The notes under the pieces were generated by a model. The model did no database searches. It saw nothing but the letters and a program-made list of their open reading frames with translations, and was not told where the DNA came from. This document shows positions 2-37,762 of a DNA stretch of 64,000 nucleotides, piece after piece. The position numbers and the translations under genes are program-made. How positions within the stretch are numbered: position 1 is the stretch's first letter; each line of letters begins with the position of its first letter. Source of the DNA: Thermoanaerobaculia bacterium (GTDB lineage Bacteria > Acidobacteriota > Thermoanaerobaculia > Gp7-AA8); assembly GCA_035482045.1 (NCBI GenBank), contig DATHRD010000081.1:88149-152148 (forward strand), written 5' to 3'.

Positions 2-3000
2 CCGGGACCCAACACCGGTACGGTGAACATCGCCTTCAGCCAGACCTTCACGGCTTCCAACACGATCGGCGCGGTCACGTTCTCGACAGCGAGCACGTTA
101 CCAGCTGGCCTTACCTTGTCCGCGGGCGGAGTGCTCTCGGGCACGCCGACGCAGACCGGCTCGTTCCCGATCGTGGTCAAGGCCACCGACGCGAACGGCT
201 GCTTCGGCAACGGCGCCACCTACACATTGACTATTGGTTGCCAGACCATCACCGTCAACAACCCCGGCACGAACAGCGGGACGGTCAACGTCGCCTTCAG
301 CCAGACCTTCACGGCCAGCAATACCATCGGCGCGCTGACGTTCTCGACGGCCTCGACGCTGCCCACGGGCATCGCGTTGTCGTCCGGCGGCGTTCTGTCC
401 GGCACGCCGACGCAGACCGGCTCGTTCCCGATCGTGGTGCATGTGGTCGACGCCAACGGTTGCTCGGCCAACGGCGCGACCTACACGCTGACCATCGCCT
501 GCCAGGTCATCACAGTCAACAACCCGGGCACGAGCAGCGGCACGGTCAACGTCGCCTTCAGTCAGACCTTCACGACTACGAACGCCATCGGCGCAACGAC
601 CTTCACGACCGCCAGCACGCTGCCTACGGGCCTGAGCCTGTCGACGGGCGGGGTGCTCTCCGGCACGCCGACGCAGACCGGCTCGTTCCCGATCGTGGGC
701 CACGTGGTTGACGCCAACGGCTGCGCAGGCAACGGCGCGACCTACACGCTGACCATCGCCTGCCAGGTCATCACCGTCAACAACCCGGGCACGAGCAGCG
801 GCACGGTCAACGTCGCCTTCAGTCAGACCTTCACGGCTACGAACGCCATCGGCGCGACGACCTTCAACACGGCCAGCACGCTGCCTACGGGCCTGAGCCT
901 GTCGACGGGCGGGGTGCTCTCCGGCACGCCGACGCAGACCGGCTCGTTCCCGATCGTGGTCCACGTGGTCGACGCCAACGGCTGCTCCGGCAACGGGGCC
1001 ACCTATACGCTGACCATCGCCTGCCAGGTCATCACGGTCAACAACCCGGGAACGAACAGCGGCACGGTCAACAGCGCGTTCAGTCAGACCTTCACGACCA
1101 GCAACGCCATCGGGACGGTGACGTTCACGACCGCTTCGACGCTCCCGACCGGTCTTTCGCTCTCGACGGGCGGAGTGCTGTCCGGTACGCCGTTGCAGGT
1201 CGGCTCGTTCCCGATCGTGGTCCACGCGGTCGACGCCAACGGCTGCTCGGGCAATGGCGCGACGTACACATTGACCATCGGCTGCCAGATCATCTCGGTC
1301 ACCAACCCGGCCACGACGACCGGCACGGTGAATACGGCCTTCAGCCAGACCTTCACGGCCGGCAACACCGTCGGCACGGTGACGTTCACCACCGCCAGCA
1401 CGCTGCCCACGGGCCTGAGCCTTTCGACTGGTGGAGTCCTCTCCGGTACGCCGACGCAGACCGGCTCGTTCCCGATCGTGGTCACAGCGACTGACGGTAA
1501 CGGCTGCTCGGGCTCGGGTTCCACGTACACCCTGGTCATCGGCTGCCAGACCATCACGGTAACCAACCCGTCCAACACCACTGGCACGGTCAGCGCGCCG
1601 TTCACCGAGGTATTCACATCGAGCAACACGATCGGAGCGGTGACTTACTCGACCGCCTCGACGCTGCCGGCCGGTCTTACGCTGGCCAGCAACGGTACCT
1701 TGTCGGGCACCCCGACCCAGTCGGGCACCTTCCCGATCGTGGTCACGGCCACCGACGCGAACGGCTGCATGGGCAACGGCGCCACGTACACCCTCGTCAT
1801 CGGCTGCCAGGTCATCACCGTGAATAACCCGGCCACCACGAGCAGCCCGGCCGGCACACCGCTCTCCATCAACTTCACGCAGAGTGGTTCAATCGGCACA
1901 GCCACGTTCACGACGGCGAGCACACTTCCGGCCGGCCTGACGCTCGATCCCGACGGCACTCTGCACGGCACGCCGACGCAGAACGGACCGTTCCCGATCG
2001 TCGTTACCGTCACCGACTCGAACGGCTGCACCGGCACGAACTCGGCCTACACGCTGACGCTGACCTGCCCGACGATCACCGTCACGAATCCGGGCACGAC
2101 CACCGGCACGGTCAACGTTGCCTTCAGCCAGACATTCACCCAGTCGGGCGGGGTGGGGACGACCACGTTCTCGATCTTCAGCGGGACGTTGCCCACGGGG
2201 CTGACGTTCCATCCGGCCACGGGTGTTCTGGACGGCACGCCAACGCAGACGGGCTCCTTCCCGCTGGTGATCCGCGCCACCGATGCCAACGGCTGCACCG
2301 GCGACGGTGCGACGTACACGCTTGTCATCGGTTGCCAGGTCATCACGGTCAACAATCCGGGCACCAACAGCGGCACGGTGAACACGGCCTTCAGCCAGAC
2401 CTTTACGGCAGGCAACACGATTGGCGCGGTGACGTTCTCGCTCAACAGCGGCACGCTGCCGGCCGGCCTCTCGCTGTCGACGGGTGGAGTTCTGTCCGGC
2501 ACGCCGACACAGACAGGTTCGTTCCCGATCACGGTCAAGGCCACCGACGCGAACGGCTGCTCGGGCATCGGCGCGACCTACACATTGACTATTGGCTGCC
2601 AGGTCATCTCGGTGACCAATCCATCGACGGCCACCGGCACGGTGAACACGGCCTTCGGTCAGACCTTCACGGCCGGCAACACAGTCGGCGCGGTGACGTT
2701 CACCACCGCCTCGACGCTGCCCACGGGCCTGAGCCTGTCGACCGGCGGAGTTCTGTCCGGCACGCCAACGCAGAGCGGCTCGTTCCCGATCGTGGTCACA
2801 GCCACAGACGGCAACGGCTGCTCGGGCTCGGGCTCCACGTACACCCTGGTCATCGGTTGCCAGACCATTACCGTTACAAATCCGGTCAACAGCACCGGGA
2901 CAGTGAATGTCGGCTTCAGCGAGCAGTTCACAGCCGGCAACACCATCGGATCGGTCACGTTCACCACGGCCAGCGCGTTACCTGCCGGCATCACGCTCTC

Positions 3001-6000
3001 CACCGGTGGCCTTCTCTCGGGCACGCCGACGCAGGCCGGCTCGTTCCCGATCGTGGTCACGGCCACCGACGCGAACGGCTGCAGCGGCAACGGCGCGACG
3101 TACACGCTGGTGATCAACTGCCAGACCATCACGGTTACTAACCCGGTCAACGCCACCGGCCCAGCCGGTACACCGTTCAGCGAGACCTTTACGCAGAGCG
3201 GCGCGATCGGCACGGTGACCTGGAGCGAGACCGGGGCCCTGCCGACCGGCATCACACTCAATCCATCGACCGGCGTCCTGTCCGGCACGCCGTTGCAGGG
3301 CGGCTGCTTCCCGATCACCGTCACTGTCACCGATTCGAACGGATGCACCGGCGCCGGCCCGACTTACACGCTGTGCATCACCTGCCCGACGATCACCGTG
3401 ACCAACCCAGGTGTATCGACGGGCACGGCCGGAACGGCCTTCAGCCAGACCTTCACCCAATCGGGCGGCATCGGCACGATGACTTGGTCCGAGACCGGCG
3501 CGCTCCCGAGCGGGATCACGCTCAACTCCTCGACCGGCGTGCTCTCGGGCACGACATCGCAGGTCGGCACGTTCCCGATCACCGTCACCGCCACCGACTC
3601 GAACGGTTGCCAGGGCACCGGCCCGACGTACAACCTGACGATTAATTGCCAGACGATCACGGTCACCAACCCGGGCGTGAACACGGGAACCGTTGACGCG
3701 CCCTTCAGCCAGACCTTCACCAAGAGCGGCATCCTCGGCACGGTGACGTGGACTGAGACGGGTACGCTGCCGCTTGGCGTCGCACTCAATTCTTCCACGG
3801 GGGTCCTCTCCGGTACGCCTGGCCAGCCGGGCAGCTTCCCGATCACGGTCACGGCCACTGATACGAACGGCTGCAGCGGCACCGGCCCGATCTATACGCT
3901 GACGATCGCTTGCCAGACCATCACGGTCACCAAGCCTGGGGTGACGACCGGCACCGTCGACACGCCGTTCAGCCAGACGTTCACTCAGAGCGGTGTCGGC
4001 ACCCACACGCCGGCGACCTTCACGCTGAACAGCGGCTCGCTGCCGTCAGGTCTCTCGCTCTCCACTGCCGGTGTGCTCTCCGGTACCCCTGATCAGCCGG
4101 GCACCTTCCCGATCACAGTCAAAGTCACGGACGCGAACGGCTGCACCGGGGTCAGCTCGACCTACACGCTCGTCATCGCCTGCCAGACGATTACCGTCAC
4201 CAACCCGGCCACCACCACCGGTACCGTAGCCGTGGCCTTCAGCCAGACGTTCACCCAGAGCGGCGTCGGCACACACACGCCGGCTACGTTTACCACCGCG
4301 TCGACGCTGCCGACCGGCTTCACGCTCTCGACGGCGGGCGTGCTGTCCGGCACCACCAACCAGCACGGTACGTTCCCGATCGTGGTCACTGTGACCGATG
4401 TCAATGGCTGCACCGGCACCGGCGCGACGTACAACCTGGTCATCAACTGCCAGACCATCACCGTCACCAACCCGGGCGTCACCACCGGTACGGTAGGTAC
4501 GCCGTTCAGCCAGACCTTCACGCAGAGTGGCGCGATCGGCGGGGCGACCTTTACCACCGCCAGCACGCTGCCGCTTGGACTCTCGCTCAGCACCGCCGGC
4601 GTCCTCTCCGGCACGCCCACCCAGTCCGGAACGTTCCCGATCGTCGTGACGGTCACGGACGGCAACGGCTGCACCGGCACCGGCTCCACCTACACGCTGA
4701 TCATCGCCTGCAACGTCATCAACGTGACCAATCCCGCCACGACTACGGGTACGGCGGGCGTGGCCTTCAGCGCCACGTTCACGCAGAGCGGCGGCAACGG
4801 CACGATCGTCTGGTCGAAGACCGGTGCGCTGCCGGCCGGCATCTCGCTCAACAGCTCCACCGGCGTTCTCTCCGGCACGACCACAGCTACCGGCTCGTTC
4901 CCGATCACGGTCACGGCCACCGACGCCAACGGCTGCACAGGCACCGGCCCGACCTACACGCTGGTCATCAACTGCCAGACCGTCACCGTGACCAACCCGG
5001 GTACCACCACCGGCACGGCCGGCGTGGCCTTTAGCCAGACCTTCACCGCCAGCGGCATCCTCGGCTCGGCCACATGGAGCGAGGTCGGCGCGCTGCCGAG
5101 CGGCTTCACCTTCAGCGCCGCCGGCGTCCTCTCTGGTACCACTAGCCAGATCGGCAGCTTCCCGATCACGGTCAAGGCCACGGACACCAACGGTTGCTTC
5201 GGCACGTCGAGCTACACCCTGGTCATCGTCTGCCAGACGGTTACGGTGACCAACCCCGGGGTCACTGCGGCGACCTTCAACGTTCCCTTCAGCGCCACCT
5301 TCACGGCCAGCGGCATCCTCGGCTCTGCCACGTTCACCCTCGCCAGCGGCACGCTGCCGACGGGTATGTCGCTTTCGGCCGCGGGCGTCCTTTCCGGCAC
5401 GCCGACGCAGACCGGCACCTTCCCGATCACGGTGAAGGCCACGGACACCAATACCTGCAATGGCACGGGCGCCACCTACACGCTGTCAGTGGCGCCAGTA
5501 GCCTCGGGTGATTCCTACAGCAACCTGGTCGACAACACCCAGGCAGTGGTCACCGGCGGCGGGACTTCATCGCCCGGAACACCGTTTGTGACGCTGAGCG
5601 GAGCGATCATCGCCAACGACACTCCGGCAGGCGGTGTGACCGCGAATCCAGGAACGTTCGCCACCTCGGCGGGCGGCAGCGTCACCATCGCCACGGACGG
5701 CACCTTCATCTATACGCCGAAGGCCAATTCGGGTGCCGCGGCGACGACCACGGACACCTTCACCTACACGGTCTCCAGCAACACCGGCGGCGTCGCGGCG
5801 GTGAACTCCGCGGCAGCCACGGTCACGCTGAATCTGACCGGCCGCGTCTGGTACGTGAAGAACAACGGCGGTGGCAGCAACGGCCAGTCGCAGTCGCCAT
5901 TCACCACCCTGGCTGCCGCGGCCGGGGCCTCAACCGCCAACGACATCATCTTCGTCTACAACGGCGACGGTACGAACAGCGGCCAGGACGCCGGCATCGC

Positions 6001-8698
6001 ACTCAAGAACGGGCAGCAGCTCCTCGGTGAGATCAACGGCCTGACCGTCAACGCCCAGACGCTCGTGGCGGCCGGCAGCAGGCCGACCATCGGCAACTCC
6101 GGCGGCGCCGGTGTCACCGTCGCCGCCAGCACGGCCAATGGTGACCGTACCGGCATCTTCATCAAGGGTCTTTCCATCGCCGGAACCACGAGCGCCATCA
6201 GTATCAGCTCCGCCAATGCGCAGACGCTCACGGCCACGGTCGACAACGTCAACATCACCGCGGCCACCGCCAACCACGGCGTCAGCGTCGCCGCCGCCGC
6301 AACGCTGACCTCCACCGTGACCGTGCAGAACAGCACGATCAGCGGCGTGGCGCAGAACGGCATCGACGCCCAGCAGACAACTGCAGGCAACCTGGTGCTC
6401 AACATCAACAACAACGCCGTCTCGGCGACGGGGACCGGCATCAACGTCGTCGGCACAGGCAGCACCAGCACCACCATCACCAACTTCGCCAGCAACGCCA
6501 TCAGCGGCAACACCGGCGGCAGCGGCATCACGGTCACCACCGCCACCTTCGACGCCACACCGGGTGGTACCTTCCAGACCGTCTCCGGCGGTACGACCAC
6601 AATTGGTGCGGCGGGCAATGGCGTCGGCGCGAACGGTATGGTGCTGACGAACGTGGCCGGTGATCTCAGCTTCACCGATCTCGACATCGTCACCAGCAAC
6701 GGCACGGGTCTCTTCGCCAGCGGTACGACGCCCTTTACCGGATCCGCCGGCTTCCAAATCGCGGTGGCCTCCGGCGTGGGAACGATCGACGCCACCGGCG
6801 GCGCGGCGGCCGATCTGAGCACCGTCACGGCCAATCTGCCATTCACCACGATCAAGAGCGCCACCAGCGTCTCGACCGGCGTGAATCTGAATGCGGTCCT
6901 CGGGACCTTCACGGCGGGTTCGGGCAGTTCGATCACCAACGCGACAAGCACTGACTTCAACATCAGCGGCGGCACCGCGACCGTGACCTACGACGGTACG
7001 ATCACCGACACCACCGGTCGCGCCGTGTCCGTGGCCAGCACTACGGGCGGAACGAAGACGTTCAGCGGGGCCATCACCAACAACGGCGGCACCGGTATCT
7101 CGCTGACGAGCAACACCGGGGCGACGATCAACTTCTCCGGTACGATCATTCTCTCCACCGGCGCCACCGACGCATTCACGGCCACCGGCGGCGGCACGGT
7201 CACGGCCACCAACACGTCGAGCACACTCACGACGACGACTGGTACGGCGTTGAATGTCGCGAACACAACGATCGGCGCGGGCGGTCTCAAGTTCCAGAGC
7301 ATTTCCGCCGGCACGGGCGCCTCGGGCCCGACAAGCGGCATCATCCTCAACAATACCGGCTCCTCCGGCGGTCTGACGATCAGCGGTACCGGTTCGGCGG
7401 GCACCGGCGGCACGATTCAGAAGATGACCGGCGCCGGAATCTCCCTCACCAGCACGAAGAACGTCAGCCTGTCGTTCATGGACGTTCAGAACGGCTCGAT
7501 GGAAGGCATCCTCGGAACCTCCGTCGACGGCTTTACGCTCACCAGTTGCTCTGTCACCGGCAACAGCACCTCCGGGAACAACCGGGACGGCATCAAGCTG
7601 ACGGACACCGTCAACGCCGTCACGTTCACGAGCGACACAGTGACCGGAAACTTCAACTCCAACGTGCAACTGACGACCGGAGGCTCTTCGACTGCGGTGA
7701 TGACGACGCTGACGGTTACGGGCGGTACCTACAGCACCAGTACGCAGAACGTCGGATTCCTCGTCGACCTCCATGGCAGCGCCGCGCTGAACACGGCCTC
7801 GGTCAGCGGCGCAACGTTCTCGGGTAACTTCTCCAAGGGCATCCAGTTCCAGCACAACGACAATTGCACGATGGGCAACGGAATTGGAGCACCGGCGACC
7901 GGAACGATCACGGTCAACAACAACACGATCACGAACAACGACGTCGGAGCGAGCTTCGAGAGCGGTGGCACCGGCGGTACGGGGTCCGCGTACTACCGGT
8001 TCACGAACAACGCCACCATCACCGGCAACCACAGCCTCGCGGTCAACTTCGCCAACGGCTCCACGGTGGGTAACGGTGCCTTCAAGGTCTTCTGCGACAG
8101 CAACCATATCGGCACGGCCGGCGTCCCCAACTCCGGTGCGGCAATTGGCGAGGGTATCCGCCTCTTCGCGCAGGGTAAGCAGACTGTGACGGCCGTGATC
8201 ACGAACAACACTATTCGGGACTTGTACAACGGCGCAGGCGGCTTCGATGCCCGCGGCATCGACGTCGAGGAGCTCGGCTCGTCGAATACGGGGCAGGGCC
8301 AGACGTCGATGGACGTGACCATCACCGGCAATAACGTCGACCAGGAGTACACGGGATCAACCTTCAACATTCAGTACGCCATCTACGTCGCGTGTGACGG
8401 GCAGGCCAGCGGCTCGGGCTCGAACGTCCATGCCGATATTCACGGCAACACCGTCCCGACGCAGAGTGCGTGCGACAGCAGCCCGTGCGCCGGCAACGAC
8501 TCGATGATCTGGATGGAGACGGTCAGCAACTCCAACAGCCCGTCCGGCGCTCTCTACAACCTGTTCGGCGAGGCTAGCGTGAACGCGGCCATCATCAACC
8601 ACAACACAGGCACAGCTGGAAAGGCTGCTGCGACGCAGAGCGGCGTTGGCCAGCCGGCCATTACCCTGACCGCCACGGCGCCGAACACGGTGAACTGA
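2..8698 (+). CDS. Giant exported repeat protein, 5'-partial (>2,890 aa): about 21 tandem Cys-paired Ig-like repeats followed by a parallel beta-helix-type C-terminal region
   Basis: The frame is open from the window edge (first codons PGPNTGTVNIAF continue the repeat) to TGA 8696-8698. It has 21 full copies of a ~87-aa unit, CQxITVxNPGxxxGTVxxAFSQTFTxxNxIGxxTFxTASTLPxGLSLSxGGVLSGTPTQxGSFPIVVxAxDANGCxGxGATYTLxI, with two conserved Cys per unit. These are followed by GRVWYVKNNGG..SPFTTL and ~1,000 aa of short G/N/T/S-rich turns (NNxIxG) typical of a right-handed beta-helix. The last ~440 aa are collinear with the product of 10765..17820. Confidence 0.85.
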   Translation, partial: PGPNTGTVNIAFSQTFTASNTIGAVTFSTASTLPAGLTLSAGGVLSGTPTQTGSFPIVVKATDANGCFGNGATYTLTIGCQTITVNNPGTNSGTVNVAFSQTFTASNTIGALTFSTASTLPTGIALSSGGVLSGTPTQTGSFPIVVHVVDANGCSANGATYTLTIACQVITVNNPGTSSGTVNVAFSQTFTTTNAIGATTFTTASTLPTGLSLSTGGVLSGTPTQTGSFPIVGHVVDANGCAGNGATYTLTIACQVITVNNPGTSSGTVNVAFSQTFTATNAIGATTFNTASTLPTGLSLSTGGVLSGTPTQTGSFPIVVHVVDANGCSGNGATYTLTIACQVITVNNPGTNSGTVNSAFSQTFTTSNAIGTVTFTTASTLPTGLSLSTGGVLSGTPLQVGSFPIVVHAVDANGCSGNGATYTLTIGCQIISVTNPATTTGTVNTAFSQTFTAGNTVGTVTFTTASTLPTGLSLSTGGVLSGTPTQTGSFPIVVTATDGNGCSGSGSTYTLVIGCQTITVTNPSNTTGTVSAPFTEVFTSSNTIGAVTYSTASTLPAGLTLASNGTLSGTPTQSGTFPIVVTATDANGCMGNGATYTLVIGCQVITVNNPATTSSPAGTPLSINFTQSGSIGTATFTTASTLPAGLTLDPDGTLHGTPTQNGPFPIVVTVTDSNGCTGTNSAYTLTLTCPTITVTNPGTTTGTVNVAFSQTFTQSGGVGTTTFSIFSGTLPTGLTFHPATGVLDGTPTQTGSFPLVIRATDANGCTGDGATYTLVIGCQVITVNNPGTNSGTVNTAFSQTFTAGNTIGAVTFSLNSGTLPAGLSLSTGGVLSGTPTQTGSFPITVKATDANGCSGIGATYTLTIGCQVISVTNPSTATGTVNTAFGQTFTAGNTVGAVTFTTASTLPTGLSLSTGGVLSGTPTQSGSFPIVVTATDGNGCSGSGSTYTLVIGCQTITVTNPVNSTGTVNVGFSEQFTAGNTIGSVTFTTASALPAGITLSTGGLLSGTPTQAGSFPIVVTATDANGCSGNGATYTLVINCQTITVTNPVNATGPAGTPFSETFTQSGAIGTVTWSETGALPTGITLNPSTGVLSGTPLQGGCFPITVTVTDSNGCTGAGPTYTLCITCPTITVTNPGVSTGTAGTAFSQTFTQSGGIGTMTWSETGALPSGITLNSSTGVLSGTTSQVGTFPITVTATDSNGCQGTGPTYNLTINCQTITVTNPGVNTGTVDAPFSQTFTKSGILGTVTWTETGTLPLGVALNSSTGVLSGTPGQPGSFPITVTATDTNGCSGTGPIYTLTIACQTITVTKPGVTTGTVDTPFSQTFTQSGVGTHTPATFTLNSGSLPSGLSLSTAGVLSGTPDQPGTFPITVKVTDANGCTGVSSTYTLVIACQTITVTNPATTTGTVAVAFSQTFTQSGVGTHTPATFTTASTLPTGFTLSTAGVLSGTTNQHGTFPIVVTVTDVNGCTGTGATYNLVINCQTITVTNPGVTTGTVGTPFSQTFTQSGAIGGATFTTASTLPLGLSLSTAGVLSGTPTQSGTFPIVVTVTDGNGCTGTGSTYTLIIACNVINVTNPATTTGTAGVAFSATFTQSGGNGTIVWSKTGALPAGISLNSSTGVLSGTTTATGSFPITVTATDANGCTGTGPTYTLVINCQTVTVTNPGTTTGTAGVAFSQTFTASGILGSATWSEVGALPSGFTFSAAGVLSGTTSQIGSFPITVKATDTNGCFGTSSYTLVIVCQTVTVTNPGVTAATFNVPFSATFTASGILGSATFTLASGTLPTGMSLSAAGVLSGTPTQTGTFPITVKATDTNTCNGTGATYTLSVAPVASGDSYSNLVDNTQAVVTGGGTSSPGTPFVTLSGAIIANDTPAGGVTANPGTFATSAGGSVTIATDGTFIYTPKANSGAAATTTDTFTYTVSSNTGGVAAVNSAAATVTLNLTGRVWYVKNNGGGSNGQSQSPFTTLAAAAGASTANDIIFVYNGDGTNSGQDAGIALKNGQQLLGEINGLTVNAQTLVAAGSRPTIGNSGGAGVTVAASTANGDRTGIFIKGLSIAGTTSAISISSANAQTLTATVDNVNITAATANHGVSVAAAATLTSTVTVQNSTISGVAQNGIDAQQTTAGNLVLNINNNAVSATGTGINVVGTGSTSTTITNFASNAISGNTGGSGITVTTATFDATPGGTFQTVSGGTTTIGAAGNGVGANGMVLTNVAGDLSFTDLDIVTSNGTGLFASGTTPFTGSAGFQIAVASGVGTIDATGGAAADLSTVTANLPFTTIKSATSVSTGVNLNAVLGTFTAGSGSSITNATSTDFNISGGTATVTYDGTITDTTGRAVSVASTTGGTKTFSGAITNNGGTGISLTSNTGATINFSGTIILSTGATDAFTATGGGTVTATNTSSTLTTTTGTALNVANTTIGAGGLKFQSISAGTGASGPTSGIILNNTGSSGGLTISGTGSAGTGGTIQKMTGAGISLTSTKNVSLSFMDVQNGSMEGILGTSVDGFTLTSCSVTGNSTSGNNRDGIKLTDTVNAVTFTSDTVTGNFNSNVQLTTGGSSTAVMTTLTVTGGTYSTSTQNVGFLVDLHGSAALNTASVSGATFSGNFSKGIQFQHNDNCTMGNGIGAPATGTITVNNNTITNNDVGASFESGGTGGTGSAYYRFTNNATITGNHSLAVNFANGSTVGNGAFKVFCDSNHIGTAGVPNSGAAIGEGIRLFAQGKQTVTAVITNNTIRDLYNGAGGFDARGIDVEELGSSNTGQGQTSMDVTITGNNVDQEYTGSTFNIQYAIYVACDGQASGSGSNVHADIHGNTVPTQSACDSSPCAGNDSMIWMETVSNSNSPSGALYNLFGEASVNAAIINHNTGTAGKAAATQSGVGQPAITLTATAPNTVN

Positions 8699-8716
8699 TC
8701 TTTCGATACCATGAGG

Positions 8717-8758
8717 CCCGGGAGCGCGAAACGCGTTCCCGGGTCCTTCTGTTTTCTT
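8717..8758 (+). terminator. Intrinsic terminator after giant gene 1
   Basis: Stem CCCGGGAGCGCG / CGCGTTCCCGGG (12 bp, 1 mismatch) with loop AAA at 8717-8743, followed by the T-rich tract tccttctgttttctt. Confidence 0.6.
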
Positions 8759-8765
8759 CGACCCC

Positions 8766-8793
8766 TTGATGTGAAATTGTGGTGAGATACACT
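8766..8793 (+). promoter_or_regulatory. Candidate sigma70-type promoter for the tail-collar operon
   Basis: TTGATG (8766-8771), 16-nt spacer, TACACT (8788-8793). This would give a ~175-nt leader before ATG 8970. Confidence 0.3.
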
Positions 8794-8969
8794 TACGTCC
8801 GGTTCAGATCAAGTAACATTCCCGCTCGGCCATCGATCCGAAAAAACAGTTCGTCCTGCTAAAGAGAGAAGAGAGAGGAGCGGATCGATGTCCGTCCGGC
8901 TCAGCAGACTCATCCCCAGGTTTCCGGCGGTCCAGCAACTGACGAGTAACGAACGATAAGGGAGGCACA

Positions 8970-9473
8970 ATGGCAGAACCATTTCTCAGCGAGATCAGGA
9001 TCATGAGTTTCGGTTTTCCGCCCAAGGGTTGGGCGACCTGCGACGGACAGCTCCTGCCGATCAACCAGAATCAGGCGCTGTTCTCACTGCTTGGGACGAC
9101 GTACGGTGGCGACGGACGCGTCAACTTCGGCCTGCCTAACCTGCAGGGGAATGCGCCCATGCACATGGGCGGCGGTCACACACTCGGTGAGCGCGGGGGC
9201 GAGCAGGCCCACACGCTGTCCATCTCCGAGATTCCCACGCACGTGCACACGGCCCAGGCCACCAGCTCGACGGGCGACCAGCCGGTGCCGGCCACGGCGT
9301 ATTACGGAGTATCGGCGTCGCAGCCCTATCTCCCGCCGGACGCCAACCTCGGTGCGCTGAACGCGGCTACGGTGGCCATGGTGGGGGGCAGCCAGGCCCA
9401 CCAGAACATGCAGCCTTTCCTGGTGCTGAACTTCTCAATCGCCCTGCAGGGCATTTTCCCGAGCCAGACCTAG
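8970..9473 (+). CDS. Phage tail-collar domain protein (MdpB-like), paralog 1
   Basis: RBS AAGGGAGG 5 nt upstream. The N-terminus FLSEIRIMSFGFPPKGWATCDGQLLPINQNQALFSLLGTTYGGDGRVNFGLPNLQG is the hallmark of the tail-collar family (expected Pfam PF07484). It has an HxH motif (THVHT) and the C-terminal motif GGSQAHQNMQPFLVLNFSIALQGIFP. Confidence 0.9.
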   Translation: MAEPFLSEIRIMSFGFPPKGWATCDGQLLPINQNQALFSLLGTTYGGDGRVNFGLPNLQGNAPMHMGGGHTLGERGGEQAHTLSISEIPTHVHTAQATSSTGDQPVPATAYYGVSASQPYLPPDANLGALNAATVAMVGGSQAHQNMQPFLVLNFSIALQGIFPSQT

Positions 9474-9489
9474 AGAGGAGGACGAAGAC

Positions 9490-9996
9490 ATGGCACAACC
9501 TTACGTTGGAGAAATTCGCATGTTCGCCGGCAACTTCGCCCCCGCGGGATGGATGTTCTGCGAGGGTCAGTTGCTTCCAATCTCTGAATACGAGACGTTG
9601 TTCAACCTTATCGGCACCACCTACGGCGGCGACGGTCAGAGCACCTTCGCGCTCCCCGACCTGCGCGGCCGCATCCCGCTGCACTTCGGCAACGGCTTCA
9701 CCCTGGCGGAGACGGGCGGCGTGGAGGATGTGACGCTGACGGTTTCGCAGATCCCGGCGCACAACCATTCGTTCCTGGGCACCTCCGGCACCGCCAACCA
9801 GACAAACCCGTTGACTAACGTCGTTGCACAGTCACTGGGCGGCGCCACCCTCTTCAACTCGGCCAATCCGAATTCGCCGATGGGGCCCAGTGCCACCACG
9901 TTGGTCGGGGGCAGCCAGCCGCACAACAATTTCCAACCCTACCTGTGCGTCGACTTCATCATTTCGCTCTTCGGGATCTTCCCGTCGCAGACCTAG
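9490..9996 (+). CDS. Phage tail-collar domain protein (MdpB-like), paralog 2
   Basis: RBS GAGGAGGA upstream. Same N-terminal collar motif (YVGEIRMFAGNFAPAGWMFCEGQLLPISEYETLFNLIGTTYGGDG), HxH motif (AHNHS) and C-terminal GGSQPHNNFQPYLCVDFIISLFGIFP. The central ~60 aa are divergent from the other paralogs. Confidence 0.9.
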   Translation: MAQPYVGEIRMFAGNFAPAGWMFCEGQLLPISEYETLFNLIGTTYGGDGQSTFALPDLRGRIPLHFGNGFTLAETGGVEDVTLTVSQIPAHNHSFLGTSGTANQTNPLTNVVAQSLGGATLFNSANPNSPMGPSATTLVGGSQPHNNFQPYLCVDFIISLFGIFPSQT

Positions 9997-10008
9997 GAGG
10001 ACATGACT

Positions 10009-10533
10009 ATGGATCCATTCGTAGCTGAAATCCGCATCTTCCCGTTCAACTTCGCGCCCAAAGGCTGGGCCTTTTGCGATGGCCAGATCCTGCCGCTCTC
10101 GCAGAACACGGCCCTCTTCTCGCTCCTCGGCACGACCTACGGCGGCGATGGTAAGTCGAACTTCGCTCTCCCCGACATGCAGGGGAACGTTCCCATGCAT
10201 CCCGGACAGGGCCCCGGCCTCTCGCTGCACGATCTCGGCGAGACCGGCGGCTCGGAAACCGTGACGTTGCTCGAGTCGGAGATTCCCTCCCACAACCACA
10301 ACATCATGGGCGTCAACTCGAACGGCAATCGCACCAACCCGGTCGGGAACTCCATTTCCCGTGCCGTCAACTCCACTCCGTACTTTCCCAGCAGCCCCAC
10401 GCCGCCCTTCGTGAATTTCAACGACAACGCCATCACGCCCGCCGGCGGCGACCAGCCGCACAACAACATGCAGCCGTACCTGACGCTCAACTTCTGCATC
10501 GCTCTGCAGGGCGTTTACCCGCCTCGCACGTAA
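10009..10533 (+). CDS. Phage tail-collar domain protein (MdpB-like), paralog 3
   Basis: The ORF opens at ATG 10003, but ATG 10009 has better spacing to AGGAGG (9995-10000) and aligns with the paralogs (MDPFVAEIRIFPFNFAPKGWAFCDGQILPLSQNTALFSLLGTTYGGDG). HxH motif (SHNHN); C-terminal GGDQPHNNMQPYLTLNFCIALQGVYP. Confidence 0.9.
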   Translation: MDPFVAEIRIFPFNFAPKGWAFCDGQILPLSQNTALFSLLGTTYGGDGKSNFALPDMQGNVPMHPGQGPGLSLHDLGETGGSETVTLLESEIPSHNHNIMGVNSNGNRTNPVGNSISRAVNSTPYFPSSPTPPFVNFNDNAITPAGGDQPHNNMQPYLTLNFCIALQGVYPPRT

Positions 10534-10550
10534 CCAGTCTTGTCGTGACC

Positions 10551-10587
10551 AGAGAGCCGCACGGATCGCCGTGCGGCTCTCTTTTTG
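10551..10587 (+). terminator. Strong intrinsic terminator after the tail-collar trio
   Basis: Perfect 14-bp stem AGAGAGCCGCACGG / CCGTGCGGCTCTCT with loop ATCG, followed by TTTTTG. Confidence 0.8.
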
Positions 10588-10627
10588 ATGCCAGTCACTT
10601 TTCCGTGACTTCATTCGGGAACTACGG

Positions 10628-10656
10628 TCGACAAGCGCGGCTCGTGTCGCTATCTT
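10628..10656 (+). promoter_or_regulatory. Candidate sigma70-type promoter for giant gene 2
   Basis: TCGACA (10628-10633), 17-nt spacer, TATCTT (10651-10656). Confidence 0.3.
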
Positions 10657-10764
10657 TCTGCCAGTCCGTTTCCACTAGTTCAGCGAAATCGTTCACGTAA
10701 CCTAACCTCGATCGTCGCTCTCCACCCGAGGGAGCGACTTTTGAATAGTAAGAGGGGTGCCGTC

Positions 10765-13700: not shown

Positions 13701-16700
13701 CTCGCTCGCCTCCGGCGTGCTCCCCTCGGGAATCTCGCTGGCGACCAATGGTGGGCTCTCGGGCACGCCGCTGCAGACAGGCAGCTTCCCGATCACCGTC
13801 AAGGTGACCGACGCGAACGGCTGCACCGGCACCACCGGCTACACGCTGACCATCGTCTGCCAGACCATCACGGTCACGAACCCCGCCGTGAACAGCGGCG
13901 TGGCAGGCTCGCCGTTCAGCCAGACATTCACGCAGAGCGGCGCCATCGGTTCGGCCACGTTCTCGCTCGCCAGCGGTTCGCTCCCGGCCGGGCTTAGCCT
14001 GTCGGCCTCGGGTGTCCTCTCCGGCACACCGACGCAGACCGGCACCTTCCCGATCACCGTGTCGGTGACGGACGCGAATGGTTGCGGCGGCACAGGCCCG
14101 ACCTACACGCTGACCATCGCCTGTCCGGTCATTACCGTGACAAATCCGTCGGTGACCATCGGCATCGCTGGCCAGGCATTCAGCCAGTCGTTCACGCAGA
14201 GCGGCGCCGTCGGTACGGCCACATTCACATTGGCCAGCGGCACGTTGCCCTCGGGTCTGAGCCTCGCCTCGGATGGCACGCTGGCGGGCGTTCCCCTGCA
14301 GACCGGCACGTTCCCGATCACCGTCACCGTCACCGATTCGAACGGTTGCACCGGGACGAGCGCGACCTACAACCTGACCATCAACTGCCAGACCATCACC
14401 GTCACCCACCCGGCCAACATGGACGGAACGGTCGGCGTGGCTTTCAGCGAGCAGTACACGCAGAGCGGTGGCATCGGAGCGGTGGTCTTCTCCACCGCCA
14501 GCACGCTTCCGACGGGGATGACTCTCGCGGCGGACGGTACGCTCTCCGGCACCCCGACCCAGAGCGGCTCGTTCCCGCTCACCGTCACCGTCACCGATTC
14601 CAACGGCTGCACCGGCTCGGATACCTTCACGCTGACCATCGGTTGCCAGACCATCACGGTCACCAATCCGGCCGTGTCGACCGGAACCGCCGGCACGCCG
14701 TTCAGCCAGACGTTCACTCAGAGCGGCGCCAATGGAACGGCGACGTTCTCGCTGGCCAGCGGCACGCTGCCGGCCGGAATGAGCCTCTCGGCCGCGGGCG
14801 TGCTCTCCGGTACCCCGACACAGACGGGCTCCTTCCCGATCACCGTCAAGGTGACCGACTCCAACGGCTGCACCGGAACGGGACCGACCTATACGCTCGT
14901 CATCGCCTGCCAGACCATCACCGTGACCAATCCCGGCACGACCACCGGAACGGTAGGAACGCCTTTCAGCCAGACCTTCACGCAAAGCGGCGGCATCGGC
15001 GCAGTCACCTTCTCCACATCCAGCGCTCTTCCGTCTGGCCTGAGTCTCTCGGCGTCGGGCGTGCTCTCCGGTACGCCGATGCAGCCCGGCACCTTCCCGA
15101 TCACGGTCATGGTGACCGATTCGAACGGTTGCACCGGAACCGGCGCGGCCTACACATTAGTCATCGCCTGCCAGACCATCACCGTGACGAACCCGGCCAC
15201 GACCACCGGTACGGTTGACGCGCCGTTCAGCCAGAGCTTCACGCAGGCCGGCGCCATCGGTACCGCCACATTCTCGATCGCCAGTGGCTCGCTGCCGGCG
15301 GGTTTGACTCTCTCTTCCAGCGGCGTTCTCTCCGGCACGCCGCAGGTGCCCGGCACCTTCACGATCACGGTCAAGGTCACCGACTCCAACGGCTGCACGG
15401 GTACGGGACCGACCTACACGCTGGTCATCGCCTGCCAGACCATCACGGTCACAAACCCCAGCTCGACGACCGGGATGTACAACGTGCCGCTGAGCGGCAG
15501 CTTCACCTTCACGCAGACGGGCGTCGGGGCGCACACCCCGGCGGTCTTCTCGCTCAACAGCGGTTCGTTGCCGTCAGGGGTATCGCTCTCCGCGAGCGGC
15601 GCCCTCACCGGCACACCCACCCAGACCGGCGTCTTCTCGATCACGGTCAAGGTGACGGACGCCAACGGCTGCACGGGGATCAGCAGCACGTACACGCTCA
15701 CGATCGCGCCGAATCTGACCACCAAGTCGTACATCGACGTGGGGAACACGCAACTCGACGGCGGCCTCCCGGCTCCGGCCACGCCGACGGTTCTTTCGGT
15801 CGCGGTATCGAATGGCGATTCTTCTGACGCCGCGATTACCTACGCGGTTACTGTTCCTCCCTTCAACGGCACGCTCACCACGTTCAACGCGAACGGAACG
15901 TTCCTCTACACCCCGAACGTCGGCAACGCGGCAGCCGACTCGTTCACCTACACCGGCACGTCGAACGGCATCACCGTGACGCGCAGCGCCACGATCACCT
16001 TCAGCGGCAGGGTCTGGTACGTCGACAACGCCACCGTCTCCGGCACGAATGACGGACGCTCGAATACGCCGTTCAAGACGATGACGGCGGTCGGCGCCGC
16101 GGCCACCGCGTCGGGCGACATCATCTACGTATCGAAAGGCTCCGGTCCCACGACGGGCACCTACACCATGCTGGTCAGCCAGCAACTCATCGGCGCCGGT
16201 GCCACGCTCAGCGTGGGCGGTGTCCTGAACGTTTCGGGAGTGGCAGCGAATACGCCGACGCTGAGCGGCACGCTCACGCTGGCCACGAACGTCACGGTCA
16301 ACGGGATCGACATGAGCACCGGGGCGACCAATGCCATCACGGGTGCGAACGTATCGGGCATCAATGTGACCGCTCGCAACGTGACCACAACGACGGGCAC
16401 GCCTGTGACCATCGTAAGTGCCAGCGGAACAATGAACGTTACGCAGATCAACGCCGGTACCTCGGCGGTCGGGCCGCCGAACGCCATCACGTTAACCAGT
16501 TACAGCGGTGGTTTCACTGTGGTGGGCGACGGCAGCAACGCCTCTAACGGTTCGGGTGGCACGATTCAGAAGACGACCGGCAATGCGATCAGCCTGACCA
16601 GCCTCACCGGCCCGGGGGTCAGTCTGTCCTCGATGATCATCAAGACCAGCACGCACGACGGCATCAACGGGACAGGCGTGAACAACTTCGCCTTGCTCGG

Positions 16701-17820
16701 GTGCCAGGTGCTGAACAACGGTACGACGTTCGCTGATAACGGGATCCACCTGTTCGACGTCAGCGGCGTGGCGACGTTCACCAACGACACGGTCACCGGC
16801 TCGTTCAACAACAACGTGTGGCTCGATGCCACGGGCGGTTCCACGGCGGTGATGACATCGCTCGCCGTTACGAACGGCAGCTACAGCGGCAGCGCCAATG
16901 ACGACGGGTTCCTGGTTTCGTTGAAGCATTCGGCCGCCATCAACACTGCCACGTTCACCGGTGCGACCTTCTCGGGCAACCTGGCGAAGGGACTTCAGCT
17001 CCAGCAGAACGACAATGCCATTCTTGGAAACGGCGTCGGAGCGCCGGCCACGGGCACGATTACGGTCAGCGGTTGCACGTTCACGAACAACGACGCCGGC
17101 GCCAGCTTCGAGGGCGGGGGCGGCGCAGCGGGCGCTACGGGAAGCGTCTACGTCAGGTTTGTAAACAATACAAACATCCTGGGCAATCAGAGTGTGGCAG
17201 TGAACTTTGCGAATGGCTCCGATAGCGGTGGTGGAACCTTCAAGGCGTTGGCCTCTGGCAACGTGATCGGAAATGCCGGCGTGGCCGGCTCCGGCTCTGC
17301 GTTCGGCGAGGGCATTCGTTTCTTCCTACAGGGGCAGCAGACCGCGACGGTAACAGTCCTGAACAACACTATCCGCCAGTGTCCGTTTGGCCGCGGGATC
17401 GACATCGAAGAGCTTGGACGCCCGGGATCGGGCCATGGGCAGACGCACCTCGATGCAAAGATCACTGGCAACGACGTCAATCCGCAGGACACGAGTGGCT
17501 TCCCGGCGTACGCGATCTATGTCGGGGCCGACGCGCAGGGCACGGGAACCTCGGGCTCCAATGTCAATGCCGAGATTCACGGCAACACGGTTCCGTCGAC
17601 GCCCGATGCATGCGACACCATGTGCGGCCCGGGGACGGGAATGATCGACTACGAACTGGTGGTCGGCGCGTCAGGTACCCAGATCGGAAGCCTTTTCAAC
17701 GCCTTCGGAGGCGCAACGGTGAACGACGAGATCGCCAACAACAACACAGGTACTTCGGGCAAGATCGTCACGCAGGGTGCGGTCACTTTGACTGCTACCC
17801 CTCCGAACACAGTGAACTAG
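10765..17820 (+). CDS. Giant secreted repeat protein (~2,351 aa): signal peptide, N-terminal beta-helix-like region, 13 Cys-paired Ig-like repeats, beta-helix-type C-terminal region; paralog of 2..8698
   Basis: The ORF track starts at TTG 10741. ATG 10765 is preferred because of the RBS AAGAGGGG 7 nt upstream. Sec signal MGRFGRTLLPVIAVTLFAFALPALA|SN. There are ~500 aa of G/N/S/T-rich turns, then 13 copies of CQTITVTNPAVxxGVAGxPFSQTFTQSGxIGxxTFSLASGTLPxGLxLxxxGxLSGTPTQTGTFPITVxxTDxNGCTGTGPTYTLTI, then GRVWYVDNATVSG..TPFKTM. The protein ends ..VTLTATPPNTVN, like giant 1 (..ITLTATAPNTVN). Confidence 0.85.
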   Translation: MGRFGRTLLPVIAVTLFAFALPALASNVTVNGTANFSSLDGSADDQDHVVNGVFTVNGDLIINGTINCNDDGPGNNAACSMRFDVSGNVVMNAGSALYAEDRKGNGPGGNITINAGGSVTVHGPSSGFGGAVISSASFGSSIGSGGTITINSGGPATFEAGTVVNTASKSNDAGKILLTSGGSMTVSGLLAAGATSTLLSTRQTGAVLDGGTAHQRGGEIRVQSTSVFDPSITINSTATIVSQSDADAAGPITIEGCGVIIRGLVASIANGDTATRVAVRSGKEIVIDATDLGVSSAGTRLGHLRADATKNGAATKRVDLFANDAIQVTGPDPSASTLYAVTSVPGSDDKKVGGGTIRAISLQGTVSGSGRVFLAGLNNDDNFGGTIDLSSQGTVNLDHAFLEAVGDFTKLKSDAAGGHIAARSYAGNVSWALGMGDVRPVGAGASGVASQGTIALTACGTVTISGTTFPTNGPAVGVFPTITTGSCSPSAPALPAGEPPLPICCNVITITNPAVTSGAAGVPFSQTFTQTGAIGTATFSIATGTLPSGLTLAANGTLSGTPTVTGSFPITVMVTDSQGCTGVGPTYPLQIVCPTITVTNPAVNSGVAATPFSQTFTESGGVGATTFSLASGTLPAGLTLASNGVLSGTPTQTGTFPITVEATDANGCTGTGPTYTLTITCQTITVTNPAVSTGVAGAPFSQTFTQSGGIGTTTFSLASGTLPAGLTLAANGTLSGSPTQTGTFAITVKATDVNGCSGTGATYTLTITCQTITVTNPAVSTGVAGAAFSQTFTQSGAIGATTFSLASGTLPAGLTLAANGTLSGAPTQTGTFAITVKATDANGCSGTGATYTLTIACQTITVTNPSVSTGVAGSPFSQTFTQSNGIGATTFSLASGTLPSGLTLASNGTLSGTPMVVGTFPITVTVTDANGCTGTGPTYNLTITCQTITVTPPAVNTGVAGTPFSVTFTESGAIGSATFSLASGVLPSGISLATNGGLSGTPLQTGSFPITVKVTDANGCTGTTGYTLTIVCQTITVTNPAVNSGVAGSPFSQTFTQSGAIGSATFSLASGSLPAGLSLSASGVLSGTPTQTGTFPITVSVTDANGCGGTGPTYTLTIACPVITVTNPSVTIGIAGQAFSQSFTQSGAVGTATFTLASGTLPSGLSLASDGTLAGVPLQTGTFPITVTVTDSNGCTGTSATYNLTINCQTITVTHPANMDGTVGVAFSEQYTQSGGIGAVVFSTASTLPTGMTLAADGTLSGTPTQSGSFPLTVTVTDSNGCTGSDTFTLTIGCQTITVTNPAVSTGTAGTPFSQTFTQSGANGTATFSLASGTLPAGMSLSAAGVLSGTPTQTGSFPITVKVTDSNGCTGTGPTYTLVIACQTITVTNPGTTTGTVGTPFSQTFTQSGGIGAVTFSTSSALPSGLSLSASGVLSGTPMQPGTFPITVMVTDSNGCTGTGAAYTLVIACQTITVTNPATTTGTVDAPFSQSFTQAGAIGTATFSIASGSLPAGLTLSSSGVLSGTPQVPGTFTITVKVTDSNGCTGTGPTYTLVIACQTITVTNPSSTTGMYNVPLSGSFTFTQTGVGAHTPAVFSLNSGSLPSGVSLSASGALTGTPTQTGVFSITVKVTDANGCTGISSTYTLTIAPNLTTKSYIDVGNTQLDGGLPAPATPTVLSVAVSNGDSSDAAITYAVTVPPFNGTLTTFNANGTFLYTPNVGNAAADSFTYTGTSNGITVTRSATITFSGRVWYVDNATVSGTNDGRSNTPFKTMTAVGAAATASGDIIYVSKGSGPTTGTYTMLVSQQLIGAGATLSVGGVLNVSGVAANTPTLSGTLTLATNVTVNGIDMSTGATNAITGANVSGINVTARNVTTTTGTPVTIVSASGTMNVTQINAGTSAVGPPNAITLTSYSGGFTVVGDGSNASNGSGGTIQKTTGNAISLTSLTGPGVSLSSMIIKTSTHDGINGTGVNNFALLGCQVLNNGTTFADNGIHLFDVSGVATFTNDTVTGSFNNNVWLDATGGSTAVMTSLAVTNGSYSGSANDDGFLVSLKHSAAINTATFTGATFSGNLAKGLQLQQNDNAILGNGVGAPATGTITVSGCTFTNNDAGASFEGGGGAAGATGSVYVRFVNNTNILGNQSVAVNFANGSDSGGGTFKALASGNVIGNAGVAGSGSAFGEGIRFFLQGQQTATVTVLNNTIRQCPFGRGIDIEELGRPGSGHGQTHLDAKITGNDVNPQDTSGFPAYAIYVGADAQGTGTSGSNVNAEIHGNTVPSTPDACDTMCGPGTGMIDYELVVGASGTQIGSLFNAFGGATVNDEIANNNTGTSGKIVTQGAVTLTATPPNTVN

Positions 17821-17879
17821 TGCAACCCTGAATCGGAAAAGGAGGATCGCACCGGGTAAGAGCATGGTTCAGCTCCTTC

Positions 17880-17965: not shown

Positions 17966-17974
17966 ATGAAGACC

Positions 17975-18590: not shown

Positions 18591-18591
18591 A

Positions 18592-18906: not shown

Positions 18907-18939
18907 GCGGTGGCTGGTCCGGTAGACTTCTCCGCGCTT

Positions 18940-21291: not shown

Positions 21292-21325
21292 CTGCAACCG
21301 AATACCCATCTACAATAGCTCCTGC

Positions 21326-37736: not shown

Positions 37737-37762
37737 AGGAGACGCCTCGCCGTCTATACCCA

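Follow-up and report, generated by a model that had tools for sequence, protein, structure and literature searches.

Why do three small genes for phage tail-collar proteins stand between two giant exported proteins in a bacterial genome? We addressed this question in a 64-kb stretch from a Thermoanaerobaculia bacterium (phylum Acidobacteriota; contig DATHRD010000081.1 of GenBank assembly GCA_035482045.1, positions 88,149 to 152,148 of the forward strand), called the window below, by following up an original prediction made from its sequence. Our reading, to which we give a probability of roughly 45%, is that the window holds one copy of a conserved, non-phage module of chromosomes and megaplasmids whose phage-fibre-like parts make up an extracellular fibre or adhesin. 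The parts are at least one giant exported protein, three collar proteins encoded in fixed order, an acetyltransferase of the GNAT family and a DUF6916 protein; the giant joins a variable stalk of immunoglobulin (Ig)-like repeats to a beta-helix module with the fold of tailspikes and polysaccharide lyases. The module is widespread, in at least seven phyla, and apparently undescribed. It would belong to a known kind of thing, the cellular reuse of phage fibre parts, here combined with giant adhesins.

Pfam scans covered both giants, the collars and the other ~30 genes of the window. The predicted order of giant gene, terminator, three collar genes, terminator, promoter-like site and second giant gene, all on the forward strand, was recovered in full. 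The first giant, giant1 (2–8698), is open in frame 2 and runs off the left edge, leaving at least 2898 amino acids (aa) inside the window; its start lies only ~2 kb further left, because sister assemblies that carry an identical collar1 in the same gene order have giant1 called at 3489–3577 aa. It comprises a He_PIG repeat part (nucleotides (nt) 2 to ~5490, 21 Ig-like repeats), a linker domain and the beta-helix module (5840–8695, ~950 aa from a GRVWYV motif to the C-terminus). A terminator-like hairpin follows (8715–8745, 14-bp stem and T-rich tail), then collar1 (8970–9473, 167 aa), collar2 (9490–9996, 168 aa), collar3 (10003–10533, 176 aa), a second terminator-like hairpin with a T-tract (10551–10582), a sigma-70-like promoter site (10628–10656, a consensus match only) and giant2, which begins at a TTG at 10741 or, more likely, at an ATG at 10765 and ends at 17820 (2351 aa from the ATG). 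Giant2 has a shorter beta-helix module, at nt 16006–17817 of the window.

The collars are members of the tail-collar family, as had been expected of them. All three match PF07484 (cut-off 24 bits): collar1 with E = 1.1e-25 and 89.7 bits, collar2 with E = 3.2e-30 and 104.3 bits, and collar3 with E = 1.1e-27 and 96.2 bits. Two of the three also match Gp10_C weakly (PF21939, E = 4.9e-5 for collar3). In each, the domain begins at residue 4–9, leaving no N-terminal shaft and no part for attachment to a baseplate or tail. No signal peptide was found on any of the collars, the GNAT protein or the DUF6916 protein. The best sequence matches in the PDB are the phage long tail fibre 8kec, T4 gp12 and other tail fibres, and the collars' HxH motif (IPTHVH, IPAHNH and IPSHNH in collars 1 to 3) aligns with SHQH of 8kec.

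The two giants carry ~87-aa repeats that had been estimated at no fewer than 21 copies and at 13 copies. These are He_PIG repeats (PF05345, 94 bits); we counted 20 repeat boundaries in giant1 and 12 in giant2 (13 with CCNVITITNP), with a period of 86–90 aa, in agreement with that estimate. The GRVWYV motif said to be shared lies at aa 1946 of giant1 and aa 1747 of giant2, and the predicted collinearity of the C-termini was likewise confirmed, over the last ~480 aa (53% identical, E = 1e-120). From the ATG at 10765, giant2 starts with MGRFGRTLLPVIAVTLFAFALPALA followed by S, which we judged by eye to be the Sec-type signal previously noted. Its N-terminal G/N/T-rich domain is common to the second giants of other loci.

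We then asked whether the trio and the giants belong together elsewhere. A pattern search over one genome per GTDB species returned at least 582 relatives; the best 80 loci, 66–82% identical to collar2, come from Acidobacteriota (several classes), Chloroflexota, Alpha-, Beta- and Gammaproteobacteria, Bacteroidota, Verrucomicrobiota and Actinomycetota. Deinococcota adds a seventh phylum through PLSDB, where megaplasmids of cultured Deinococcus carry the module, as does a megaplasmid of a cultured Aminobacter; on these replicons, RefSeq labels the genes hypothetical, three times "tail fiber protein", and GNAT. Cultured carriers are Aminobacter aminovorans KCTC 2477 (AA2016_RS29755–RS29785), Deinococcus ficus CC-FR2-10, Mesorhizobium sp. 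WSM4083, and Flavobacterium sp. ENC and LHD-85, in which the genes form a six-gene operon. The linkage set comprised 82 loci (83 locus records, one a duplicate), whose six-frame open reading frames (ORFs) were mapped with phmmer. One-to-one orthologues of collar1, collar2 and collar3 are present in all 82, in the order 1-2-3 in all complete loci but two, with intergenic gaps of ~7–20 nt. When all ORFs were clustered against one another, the only recurrent flanking families were the collars (82 loci), GNAT (72 loci), DUF6916 (68 loci; by hidden Markov model (HMM), 69 of the 83 records) and a ~260-aa family discussed below. Of the 51 loci whose two flanks each extend for 5 kb or more, 48 have a giant bearing the beta-helix module within ~4 kb; the exceptions without a nearby giant are L012, L018 and L045. 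The association of collar trios with giant beta-helix/Ig proteins, put forward from this one window, thus holds over seven phyla.

In the window, the GNAT gene (19316–19792, + strand; 158 aa; PF00583, E = 7e-13) and the DUF6916 gene (19796–20089, − strand; 97 aa; PF21880, E = 1.5e-26) lie beyond giant2, and neither had been noticed originally. In locus L001, which together with L002 has a collar2 91% identical to that of the window, and in L003, on a 3-Mb contig, the order is giant, three collars, GNAT, DUF6916. L001 is the closest relative, and giant2 is absent at the corresponding position; in our ORF map its GNAT ORF adjoins collar3, 2 nt from the end of the latter. We therefore regard giant2 as an added second giant rather than one side of a symmetrical bracket around the collars. 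The unit, originally placed at 2–17820, is larger than that: it reaches at least to 20089 and probably to 25253.

No phage company was found for these genes. Pfam detected no capsid, sheath, tube, baseplate, terminase or integrase gene among the genes of the 64 kb, and no structural, packaging or integration family is recurrent around the 82 loci. Genes upstream of complete giants in other loci are ordinary and unrelated, and the early verdict that this is neither prophage nor tailocin stands. All 798 matching phage records are below 60% identity to the collars, the best at ~40%; in IMG/VR the best match is 59% identical, on a contig that also holds a GNAT gene, and the others reach at most 49%. 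The collars are not recent phage genes. We conclude that the linkage is real and not phage-borne.

The giants around the collars differ from locus to locus in everything but one part. A profile built with jackhmmer from aa 1900–2898 of giant1 matched every adjacent giant, whether upstream, downstream or divergent, where plain phmmer had connected only some of them; it matched none of the 49 non-adjacent large same-strand ORFs of the same loci. The part so defined is ~700–1000 aa long and common to all collar-linked giants. Outside it, they carry He_PIG, Cadherin_4/5, Big_9 or Big_5 repeats, and the secretion signal differs too. The module is C-terminal in upstream giants (23/23 complete ones) and N-proximal (aa ~170–1000) in the downstream or divergent giants of Chloroflexota, Pyrinomonadaceae, Flavobacterium and Verrucomicrobiota; thus, the end of the giant gene that encodes the module always faces the collar genes.

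The proposal that the giants contain a beta-helix is borne out by modelling and only in part by domain search. AlphaFold2, given a 32-sequence alignment, predicted a continuous all-beta solenoid (predicted local distance difference test (pLDDT) 86.9, predicted template-modelling (TM) score 0.83), and its Foldseek neighbours are all right-handed parallel beta-helices: PL6 lyases, RbmB, polygalacturonases, phage tailspikes and pertactin. These matches are all weak (best E = 0.019, none at or below 0.001, low TM scores). PF13229 scored 24 bits on giant1, below its cut-off of 25.9, and passed the threshold on a 659-aa paralogue encoded further along the window. Together, these results support a right-handed parallel beta-helix as the predicted fold. 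Neither Pfam nor NCBIfam assigned the module to an enzyme family and we identified no catalytic residues; with no structural match reaching E = 0.001, an enzymatic activity is not supported.

How the giants leave the cell varies. Both window giants terminate in ...TLTAT(A/P)PNTVN without a hydrophobic tail. As stated in the original prediction, we found no autotransporter, LPXTG or PEP-CTERM feature and no type I secretion system (T1SS) or two-partner secretion (TPS) gene: PEP-CTERM or LPXTG sorting motifs with a transmembrane helix are absent from both C-termini, neither terminal part gave a Pfam or NCBIfam match to a TPS domain or a beta-barrel translocator, RTX repeats and T1SS ABC, membrane fusion protein or TolC genes are absent from the giants, the window genes and the recurrent neighbours, and no TpsB or other secretion partner forms a recurrent family flanking the 82 loci. 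The collar-linked giants of Flavobacterium carry the TIGR04183 type A sorting domain of the type IX secretion system (T9SS; 40.4 and 27.7 bits, cut-off 23), and the C-terminus of giant1 has no match to a T9SS sorting domain, so this feature is met in the Bacteroidota members only. Upstream-type giants (L003, L011, L013, L021, L032, L047, L054 and others) have short conserved C-terminal tails with a Cys 2–5 residues before the terminal Pro, of the types ...GGAAC.TPP, ...SGFSNCSLP and ...G.CG.FP, the window type being ...TLTATPPNTVN; no known sorting-signal model matched these tails.

The collars are the most conserved component of the module. Measured across the 82 loci, the collars have median identities to the window of 69% (collar1), 73% (collar2) and 71% (collar3), against 45.5% for GNAT and 39.6% for DUF6916. 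When 238 collars are aligned, 43 columns reach 97% invariance or more, among them H65, H91 and H93 (the HxH motif), H145 and N147. A further 24 columns are fixed within each paralogue yet differ between paralogues, clustered at the N-terminus (MAEPFL in collar1, MAQPYV in collar2, MADPFV in collar3) and the C-terminus, and variation is confined to residues ~95–135. The original prediction had seen in the collars a receptor-binding tip; with the collars the most conserved part of the module and only ~95–135 varying, they are not a typical fast-evolving one. Such a pattern is expected if the three subunits are not equivalent, the assembly scaffold is conserved and the surface loops vary. We strongly infer that the three collars form a 1:1:1 heterotrimeric, gp12-like knob with a putative HxH metal site on its axis, in which the N-terminal ~95 and C-terminal ~30 residues would be the scaffold and residues ~95–135 the surface loops.

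Fusions between collars offered a separate view of this proposed trimer. A phmmer search over 1.84 billion cluster representatives (50% identity) placed 57,376 clusters in the collar family at E ≤ 1e-3 and 2,919 at E ≤ 1e-30. Of the top 150 representatives of this family, 44 have two units, and 25 consist of one ~500–560-aa chain with exactly three full-length collar units. In proteins of 1000–6000 aa, collar units are grouped in threes, as one, two or four triplets. These long proteins join the triplets to Cadherin_4, Cadherin_5, Big_9, Laminin_G_3, Calx-beta and other Ig-type domains, repeat families also found in collar-adjacent giants. By Rosetta-stone logic, these triplet fusions support the view that three units make one pseudo-threefold body and that this body belongs with giant secreted repeat proteins. 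The occurrence of collar units in threes, also inside giant secreted cadherin/Ig proteins, therefore favours a trimeric knob of a giant extracellular protein, and the most likely arrangement is that the trio forms a heterotrimeric knob working with the giant secreted proteins. Signals on the 25 triple-unit chains are mixed: seven have a Sec, lipoprotein or Tat (twin-arginine translocation) signal and 18 have none. The seven, like the T9SS sorting domains of the Flavobacterium giants, speak for a place outside the cytoplasm.

Several of the longest chains are of interest in themselves. P0361 (4832 aa), P0400 (3740 aa), P0445, P0376 and P0414 have two or four collar triplets set between cadherin/Ig-type repeats, and several of these share an N-terminal LE(D/P)R.LLS; they may be single-chain counterparts of the split system. 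Distant stand-alone collars (30–50% identity) also occur in tandem threes on viral-classed contigs (L085, L086, L087, L088, L089, L116, L122 and L136, of which L087 is the 5.4-kb IMG/VR entry UViG_2848685470_000004), and one viral-classed contig has nine collar genes in a row. Triplet organisation is thus a general property of small collar genes and not specific to the module.

Comparison with known systems places the module near several of them. The tip of the T4 gp12 short tail fibre, 8kec and 9nxk have the same collar domain (PF07484, with the related Gp10_C, PF21939), from a trimeric family, and gp12-type tips share with the window collars an HxH ~25–35 residues downstream and a C-terminal GG.QPH.N.QP strand. 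Unlike gp12, the window collars stand alone: at 167–176 aa they have neither shaft nor attachment domain, their genes belong to cellular genomes that carry no tail genes, and they are three distinct paralogues in fixed order rather than one homotrimer-forming gene. By annotation, the bacterial, non-phage COG4675 "microcystin-dependent proteins" MdpB/MrpB and RhiB are of the same family. RhiB of rhiABC has been described as a COG4675/tail-collar protein (PMC6969944, PMC13133039); the rhiABC operon of Rhizobium leguminosarum, which is controlled by quorum sensing, encodes one collar protein beside RhiA and RhiC, whereas in the window three paralogues are accompanied by GNAT, DUF6916 and a giant.

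The giants' module, in turn, has the predicted fold of tailspikes and lyases (PL6 alginate lyases, RbmB, the HK620, Dettilon and phi297 tailspikes, GH28), and its cap motif ...VWYV.N...G.G....PF.T...A is typical of right-handed beta-helices. It is about twice as long as in those proteins, is fused to tens of Ig-like repeats and matches them weakly in structure. Giant repeat adhesins of the T1SS RTX type (LapA, SiiE, MpIBP) and of the T9SS SprB type have the same architecture as our giants, combining a long Ig-like extender, a ligand-binding end module and a secretion signal. The Flavobacterium giants, as T9SS type A substrates, resemble SprB-type adhesins in their sorting domain; the window giants differ from such adhesins in having no RTX, T1SS, TPS or usher partner and in being accompanied by the collar trio, GNAT and DUF6916. 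Phage receptor-binding modules have been domesticated in R- and F-type tailocins, in extracellular contractile injection systems and in the chimeric fibre proteins of Bdellovibrio, where they are single-gene homotrimers mounted on a tail or baseplate or anchored by a signal of their own. The window has no tail; three genes divide the tip between them, and a separate giant of monomer type would be the shaft.

The two small accessory proteins gave less away. The GNAT protein shows generic similarity to the acetyl-CoA core; its closest solved relatives are weak matches to N-alpha-acetyltransferases, and NCBIfam assigned no subfamily. AlphaFold2 predicted DUF6916 to be a small six-stranded beta-barrel (pLDDT 77.6), and Foldseek against PDB and BFVD returned only insignificant small-barrel matches (tail-tube-like, PilZ and protease half-barrels). 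Long DUF6916 ORFs of up to 775 aa were considered as fusions and rejected as over-extended start calls, since the domain always lies at the ORF end. The two genes, 3 nt apart in the window, are convergent (GNAT +, DUF6916 −) with 3' ends overlapping by exactly 8 nt in at least 12 loci of different lineages (L011, L013, L016, L029, L032, L033, L052, L056, L059, L065, L071 and L077) and co-directional in Chloroflexota and Flavobacterium. A toxin-antitoxin pair was also considered and rejected: DUF6916 is an all-beta barrel by prediction, matches DUF1778 only at E = 0.17, and the genes are usually convergent. PADLOC reported nothing for the collars, GNAT, DUF6916 or the beta-helix paralogue, only for an inserted DUF4143 ATPase (PDC-S01). 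An anti-phage defence system was rejected, the core genes having no PADLOC match.

The ~260-aa family mentioned above sits between collar3 and GNAT in 13 loci and has an invariant twin-arginine signal; its RR is invariant over 12 aligned members, including a window protein at 24477–25253 (+; IPRREFLRISSVAALGVAVVG; Tat-family HMM, E = 3.9e-10). A motif scan with regular expressions found an ORF with a Tat signal (200–285 aa, at least two sequence families) directly after collar3 in 25 of the 82 loci, and 17% of nearby ORFs have such a signal versus 1.5% of background ORFs. The mature part shows no similarity in Pfam, NCBIfam or PDB. In the window, the Tat-signal gene is the last of three genes (21284–25253) with overlapping stops and starts in an operon-like arrangement: a ClpX-like AAA+ ATPase (21284–22402, +), first gene of this probable satellite operon, whose membership in the module is uncertain; the Sec-signal beta-helix paralogue of 659 aa (22402–24378, +; PF13229, 29.7 bits; module profile, E = 1.4e-37), with the N-cap VFVDN...PFTTIGQAV; and the Tat-signal protein. 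This pairing of a beta-helix paralogue with a Tat-family protein recurs in L001, at 15884–18622.

How might these parts work together? In physical partnership with the giant's beta-helix module, the knob may act as an accessory subunit for ligand binding or capping, and one trio could serve several giants, here giant1, giant2 and perhaps the 659-aa paralogue; for both steps our support is moderate. The rest is speculative. The signal-less knob would fold and load its metal in the cytoplasm, GNAT might acetylate the conserved collar N-termini MA(E/Q/D)P(F/Y), which have Ala at position 2 in most, DUF6916 could be a maturation or assembly factor, and the knob might then cross the inner membrane on the small twin-arginine-signal protein. 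Judging from sequence features, such carriage of a folded knob by a Tat-signal partner would amount to Tat hitch-hiking and would reconcile signal-less collars with exported giants. Taken to its end, this line of thought gives an unrecognised surface organelle, a "tail fibre without a tail", whose metal-centred heterotrimeric knob would be assembled in trans from three signal-less products, matured by GNAT and DUF6916, carried by Tat and mounted on the beta-helix of the giants. We consider that full version unlikely.

Several observations weigh against an extracellular fibre or adhesin. The collars, GNAT and DUF6916 are signal-less and the giants are exported, so a physical surface complex needs a separate export route; the original idea of a phage-fibre-derived surface apparatus is partly supported, by the linkage and by the triplets in giant secreted proteins, and would need a way out for its collars. 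The Tat-signal protein is adjacent in only ~30% of loci, and the window copy is 14 kb off, next to another beta-helix gene. Because terminator-like hairpins stand between giant1, the collars and giant2, these need not be co-transcribed here. The model of the module is a single-chain solenoid with no sign of a trimer or a docking site, and the suggestion that the collars trimerise the giant found no support. None of the top 150 family representatives fuses a collar to this particular beta-helix module, so a specific docking site is something we infer. In a reciprocal test of five module-bearing proteins on long contigs, two adjoin collars, GNAT and DUF6916 and three do not. Collars imply a giant, whereas giants have free paralogues. 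Finally, the roles proposed for GNAT and DUF6916 are guesses, and the fold search with DUF6916 was uninformative.

A rival reading is that the collars, GNAT and DUF6916 stay in the cytoplasm and that the giant is their target until it has been exported: they might acetylate it, keep its beta-helix export-competent, or sense and regulate its production, in the manner of the cytoplasmic modifying enzymes of other giant exoproteins. That the small proteins are all signal-less, that GNAT belongs to a cytoplasmic, acetyl-CoA-dependent enzyme class and that 18 of the 25 single-chain triple-collar proteins also have no signal are consistent with this, and collar conservation of 69–73% suits an invariant intracellular partner better than an environmental ligand. 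However, the collar fold is known only from the distal tips of extracellular phage fibres, collar triplets lie inside giants with secretion signals, some free triplets have Sec or Tat signals, the Tat-signal protein is enriched directly after collar3, and no chaperone-like or regulatory domain was detected; on balance, we find a purely cytoplasmic role doubtful, if a serious contender. We rate lower still, as distinctly unlikely, the idea that trio, GNAT and DUF6916 are a self-contained unit (for instance lectin-like or stress-related) that merely shares a mobile or variable island with giants. In its favour, the module lies on Aminobacter and Deinococcus megaplasmids, the window and L001 both have insertions of toxin-antitoxin and defence-like genes, and identity does not follow taxonomy (a Chloroflexia metagenome-assembled genome is 82% identical), which suggests horizontal transfer. 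Module-bearing giants also occur alone, and the trios of L012 and L045 have no giant. Yet the adjacency outlasts repeated rearrangement, with the giant upstream, downstream or divergent and the module end always toward the collars, the partner always has the same beta-helix module though the rest of the giant differs, and collar triplets are fused to the same repeat families.

Two further explanations keep closer to phage biology. The bacteriocin-like option of the original prediction, in which the giant or the collars deliver toxicity and GNAT and DUF6916 confer immunity, recalls the use of phage-fibre parts by tailocins, and a GNAT gene beside a small protein loosely recalls GNAT-toxin/antitoxin pairs, the match of DUF6916 to the DUF1778 antitoxin being marginal (E = 0.17). 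No toxin domain was found by Pfam or NCBIfam in either giant or in the collars, nor any immunity or lysis gene, and the core proteins have no PADLOC match. GNAT and DUF6916 are usually convergent and not co-transcribed, no lysis or secretion partner is recurrent, and the collars are too conserved for a component of an arms race; we consider this very improbable. Least credible of all is the remnant of a prophage, tailocin or contractile injection system of which only fibre genes survive. The domain families are of phage origin, distant stand-alone collar trios lie on viral-classed contigs, and in Acaryochloris marina sheath and baseplate genes from another part of the genome are induced together with a trio. 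But structural, packaging and integration genes are absent from the 64 kb and from the recurrent neighbours of the 82 loci, phage proteins are at most 40% identical where bacterial loci share ~70%, and the order, paralogue identity and purifying conservation over seven phyla are what a functional cellular module would show.

The other genes of the window are a mixture of insertions and ordinary chromosome. Between collar3 and GNAT lie giant2, an orphan ORF of 204 aa (17966–18580, +) and a PemK/MazF toxin-antitoxin pair with a ribbon-helix-helix (RHH) partner (18592–19212, −), inserted inside the module. Gene calling in the sister assembly L166 includes the orphan ORF. We found no homologue of it in Pfam, PADLOC or the loci, its composition is unusual in being rich in Arg and Ser, and it may not be a real gene. 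At the equivalent place, L001 (12252–15729) has insertions of PIN/RHH, AbiEii and PIN/MazE, and the gap among the collars, GNAT and DUF6916 behaves as an insertion hot spot. The DUF4143/AAA_14 ATPase (20107–21225, −; PADLOC candidate PDC-S01, E = 7e-41) follows DUF6916. Beyond the satellite operon lies an exosortase EpsH fragment of 169 aa (region 26637–27651, fragment 27142–27651, −) that covers only model positions 101–251 and overlaps a 191-aa ORF in a different frame; it may be a truncated or frameshifted exosortase. Genes for an extracytoplasmic function (ECF)-type sigma factor, a zf-HC2 anti-sigma factor and a third giant (2037 aa; Ig_7 ×10, Ig_3, I-set) occupy 36747–45157 (+); this giant has no beta-helix module and is unrelated to giant1 and giant2. 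A 1013-aa tetratricopeptide repeat (TPR) plus CHAT (caspase-like) protein is encoded at 45388–48429 (−; PF12770, E = 2e-70). As a whole, the ~45 kb beyond giant2 is ordinary chromosome, with FtsY, a MutS-family protein, an RluA-type pseudouridine synthase, BlaI/BlaR1 and the ECF sigma/anti-sigma genes among its contents. Rfam gave zero matches over the whole window, and thus no structured RNA or riboswitch in the intergenic regions.

Full-text searches of the literature returned no description of the module, and a paper on the Ruegeria exoproteome does not mention collar proteins. Pieces of it have been seen in passing: COG4675 proteins were detected in soil metaproteomes (PMC5579227), and tail-collar paralogues were noted in Solibacter usitatus (PMC3174227). 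In two strains of A. marina, AM1_3686 (acetyltransferase), AM1_3687 (hypothetical) and AM1_3688–3690 (three tail-collar proteins) were among the genes most strongly co-induced in low far-red light (PMC11633204). If these genes are orthologues of those in the window, this is a lead on co-expression.

COG4675 proteins, labelled "microcystin-dependent protein" or "tail fiber protein", are commonly annotated, wrongly, as phage genes, and hardly any function has been assigned to them. Our analysis places a highly conserved branch of them in a fixed cellular module with giant secreted proteins, which gives the family a concrete context and flags the module as a source of false prophage calls. It also offers a structural hypothesis, an obligate heterotrimer, for which the single-chain pseudo-trimers are natural controls, and cultured, probably tractable carriers are at hand in Flavobacterium, Mesorhizobium, Aminobacter and Deinococcus. 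If the knob is mounted on giant adhesins, it would be a new bacterial reuse of phage receptor-binding hardware, and if Tat hitch-hiking is true of the knob, a new class of cargo for that route. Such a system could help explain adhesion, matrix handling and cell-cell recognition in abundant, understudied soil phyla such as Acidobacteriota and Chloroflexota.

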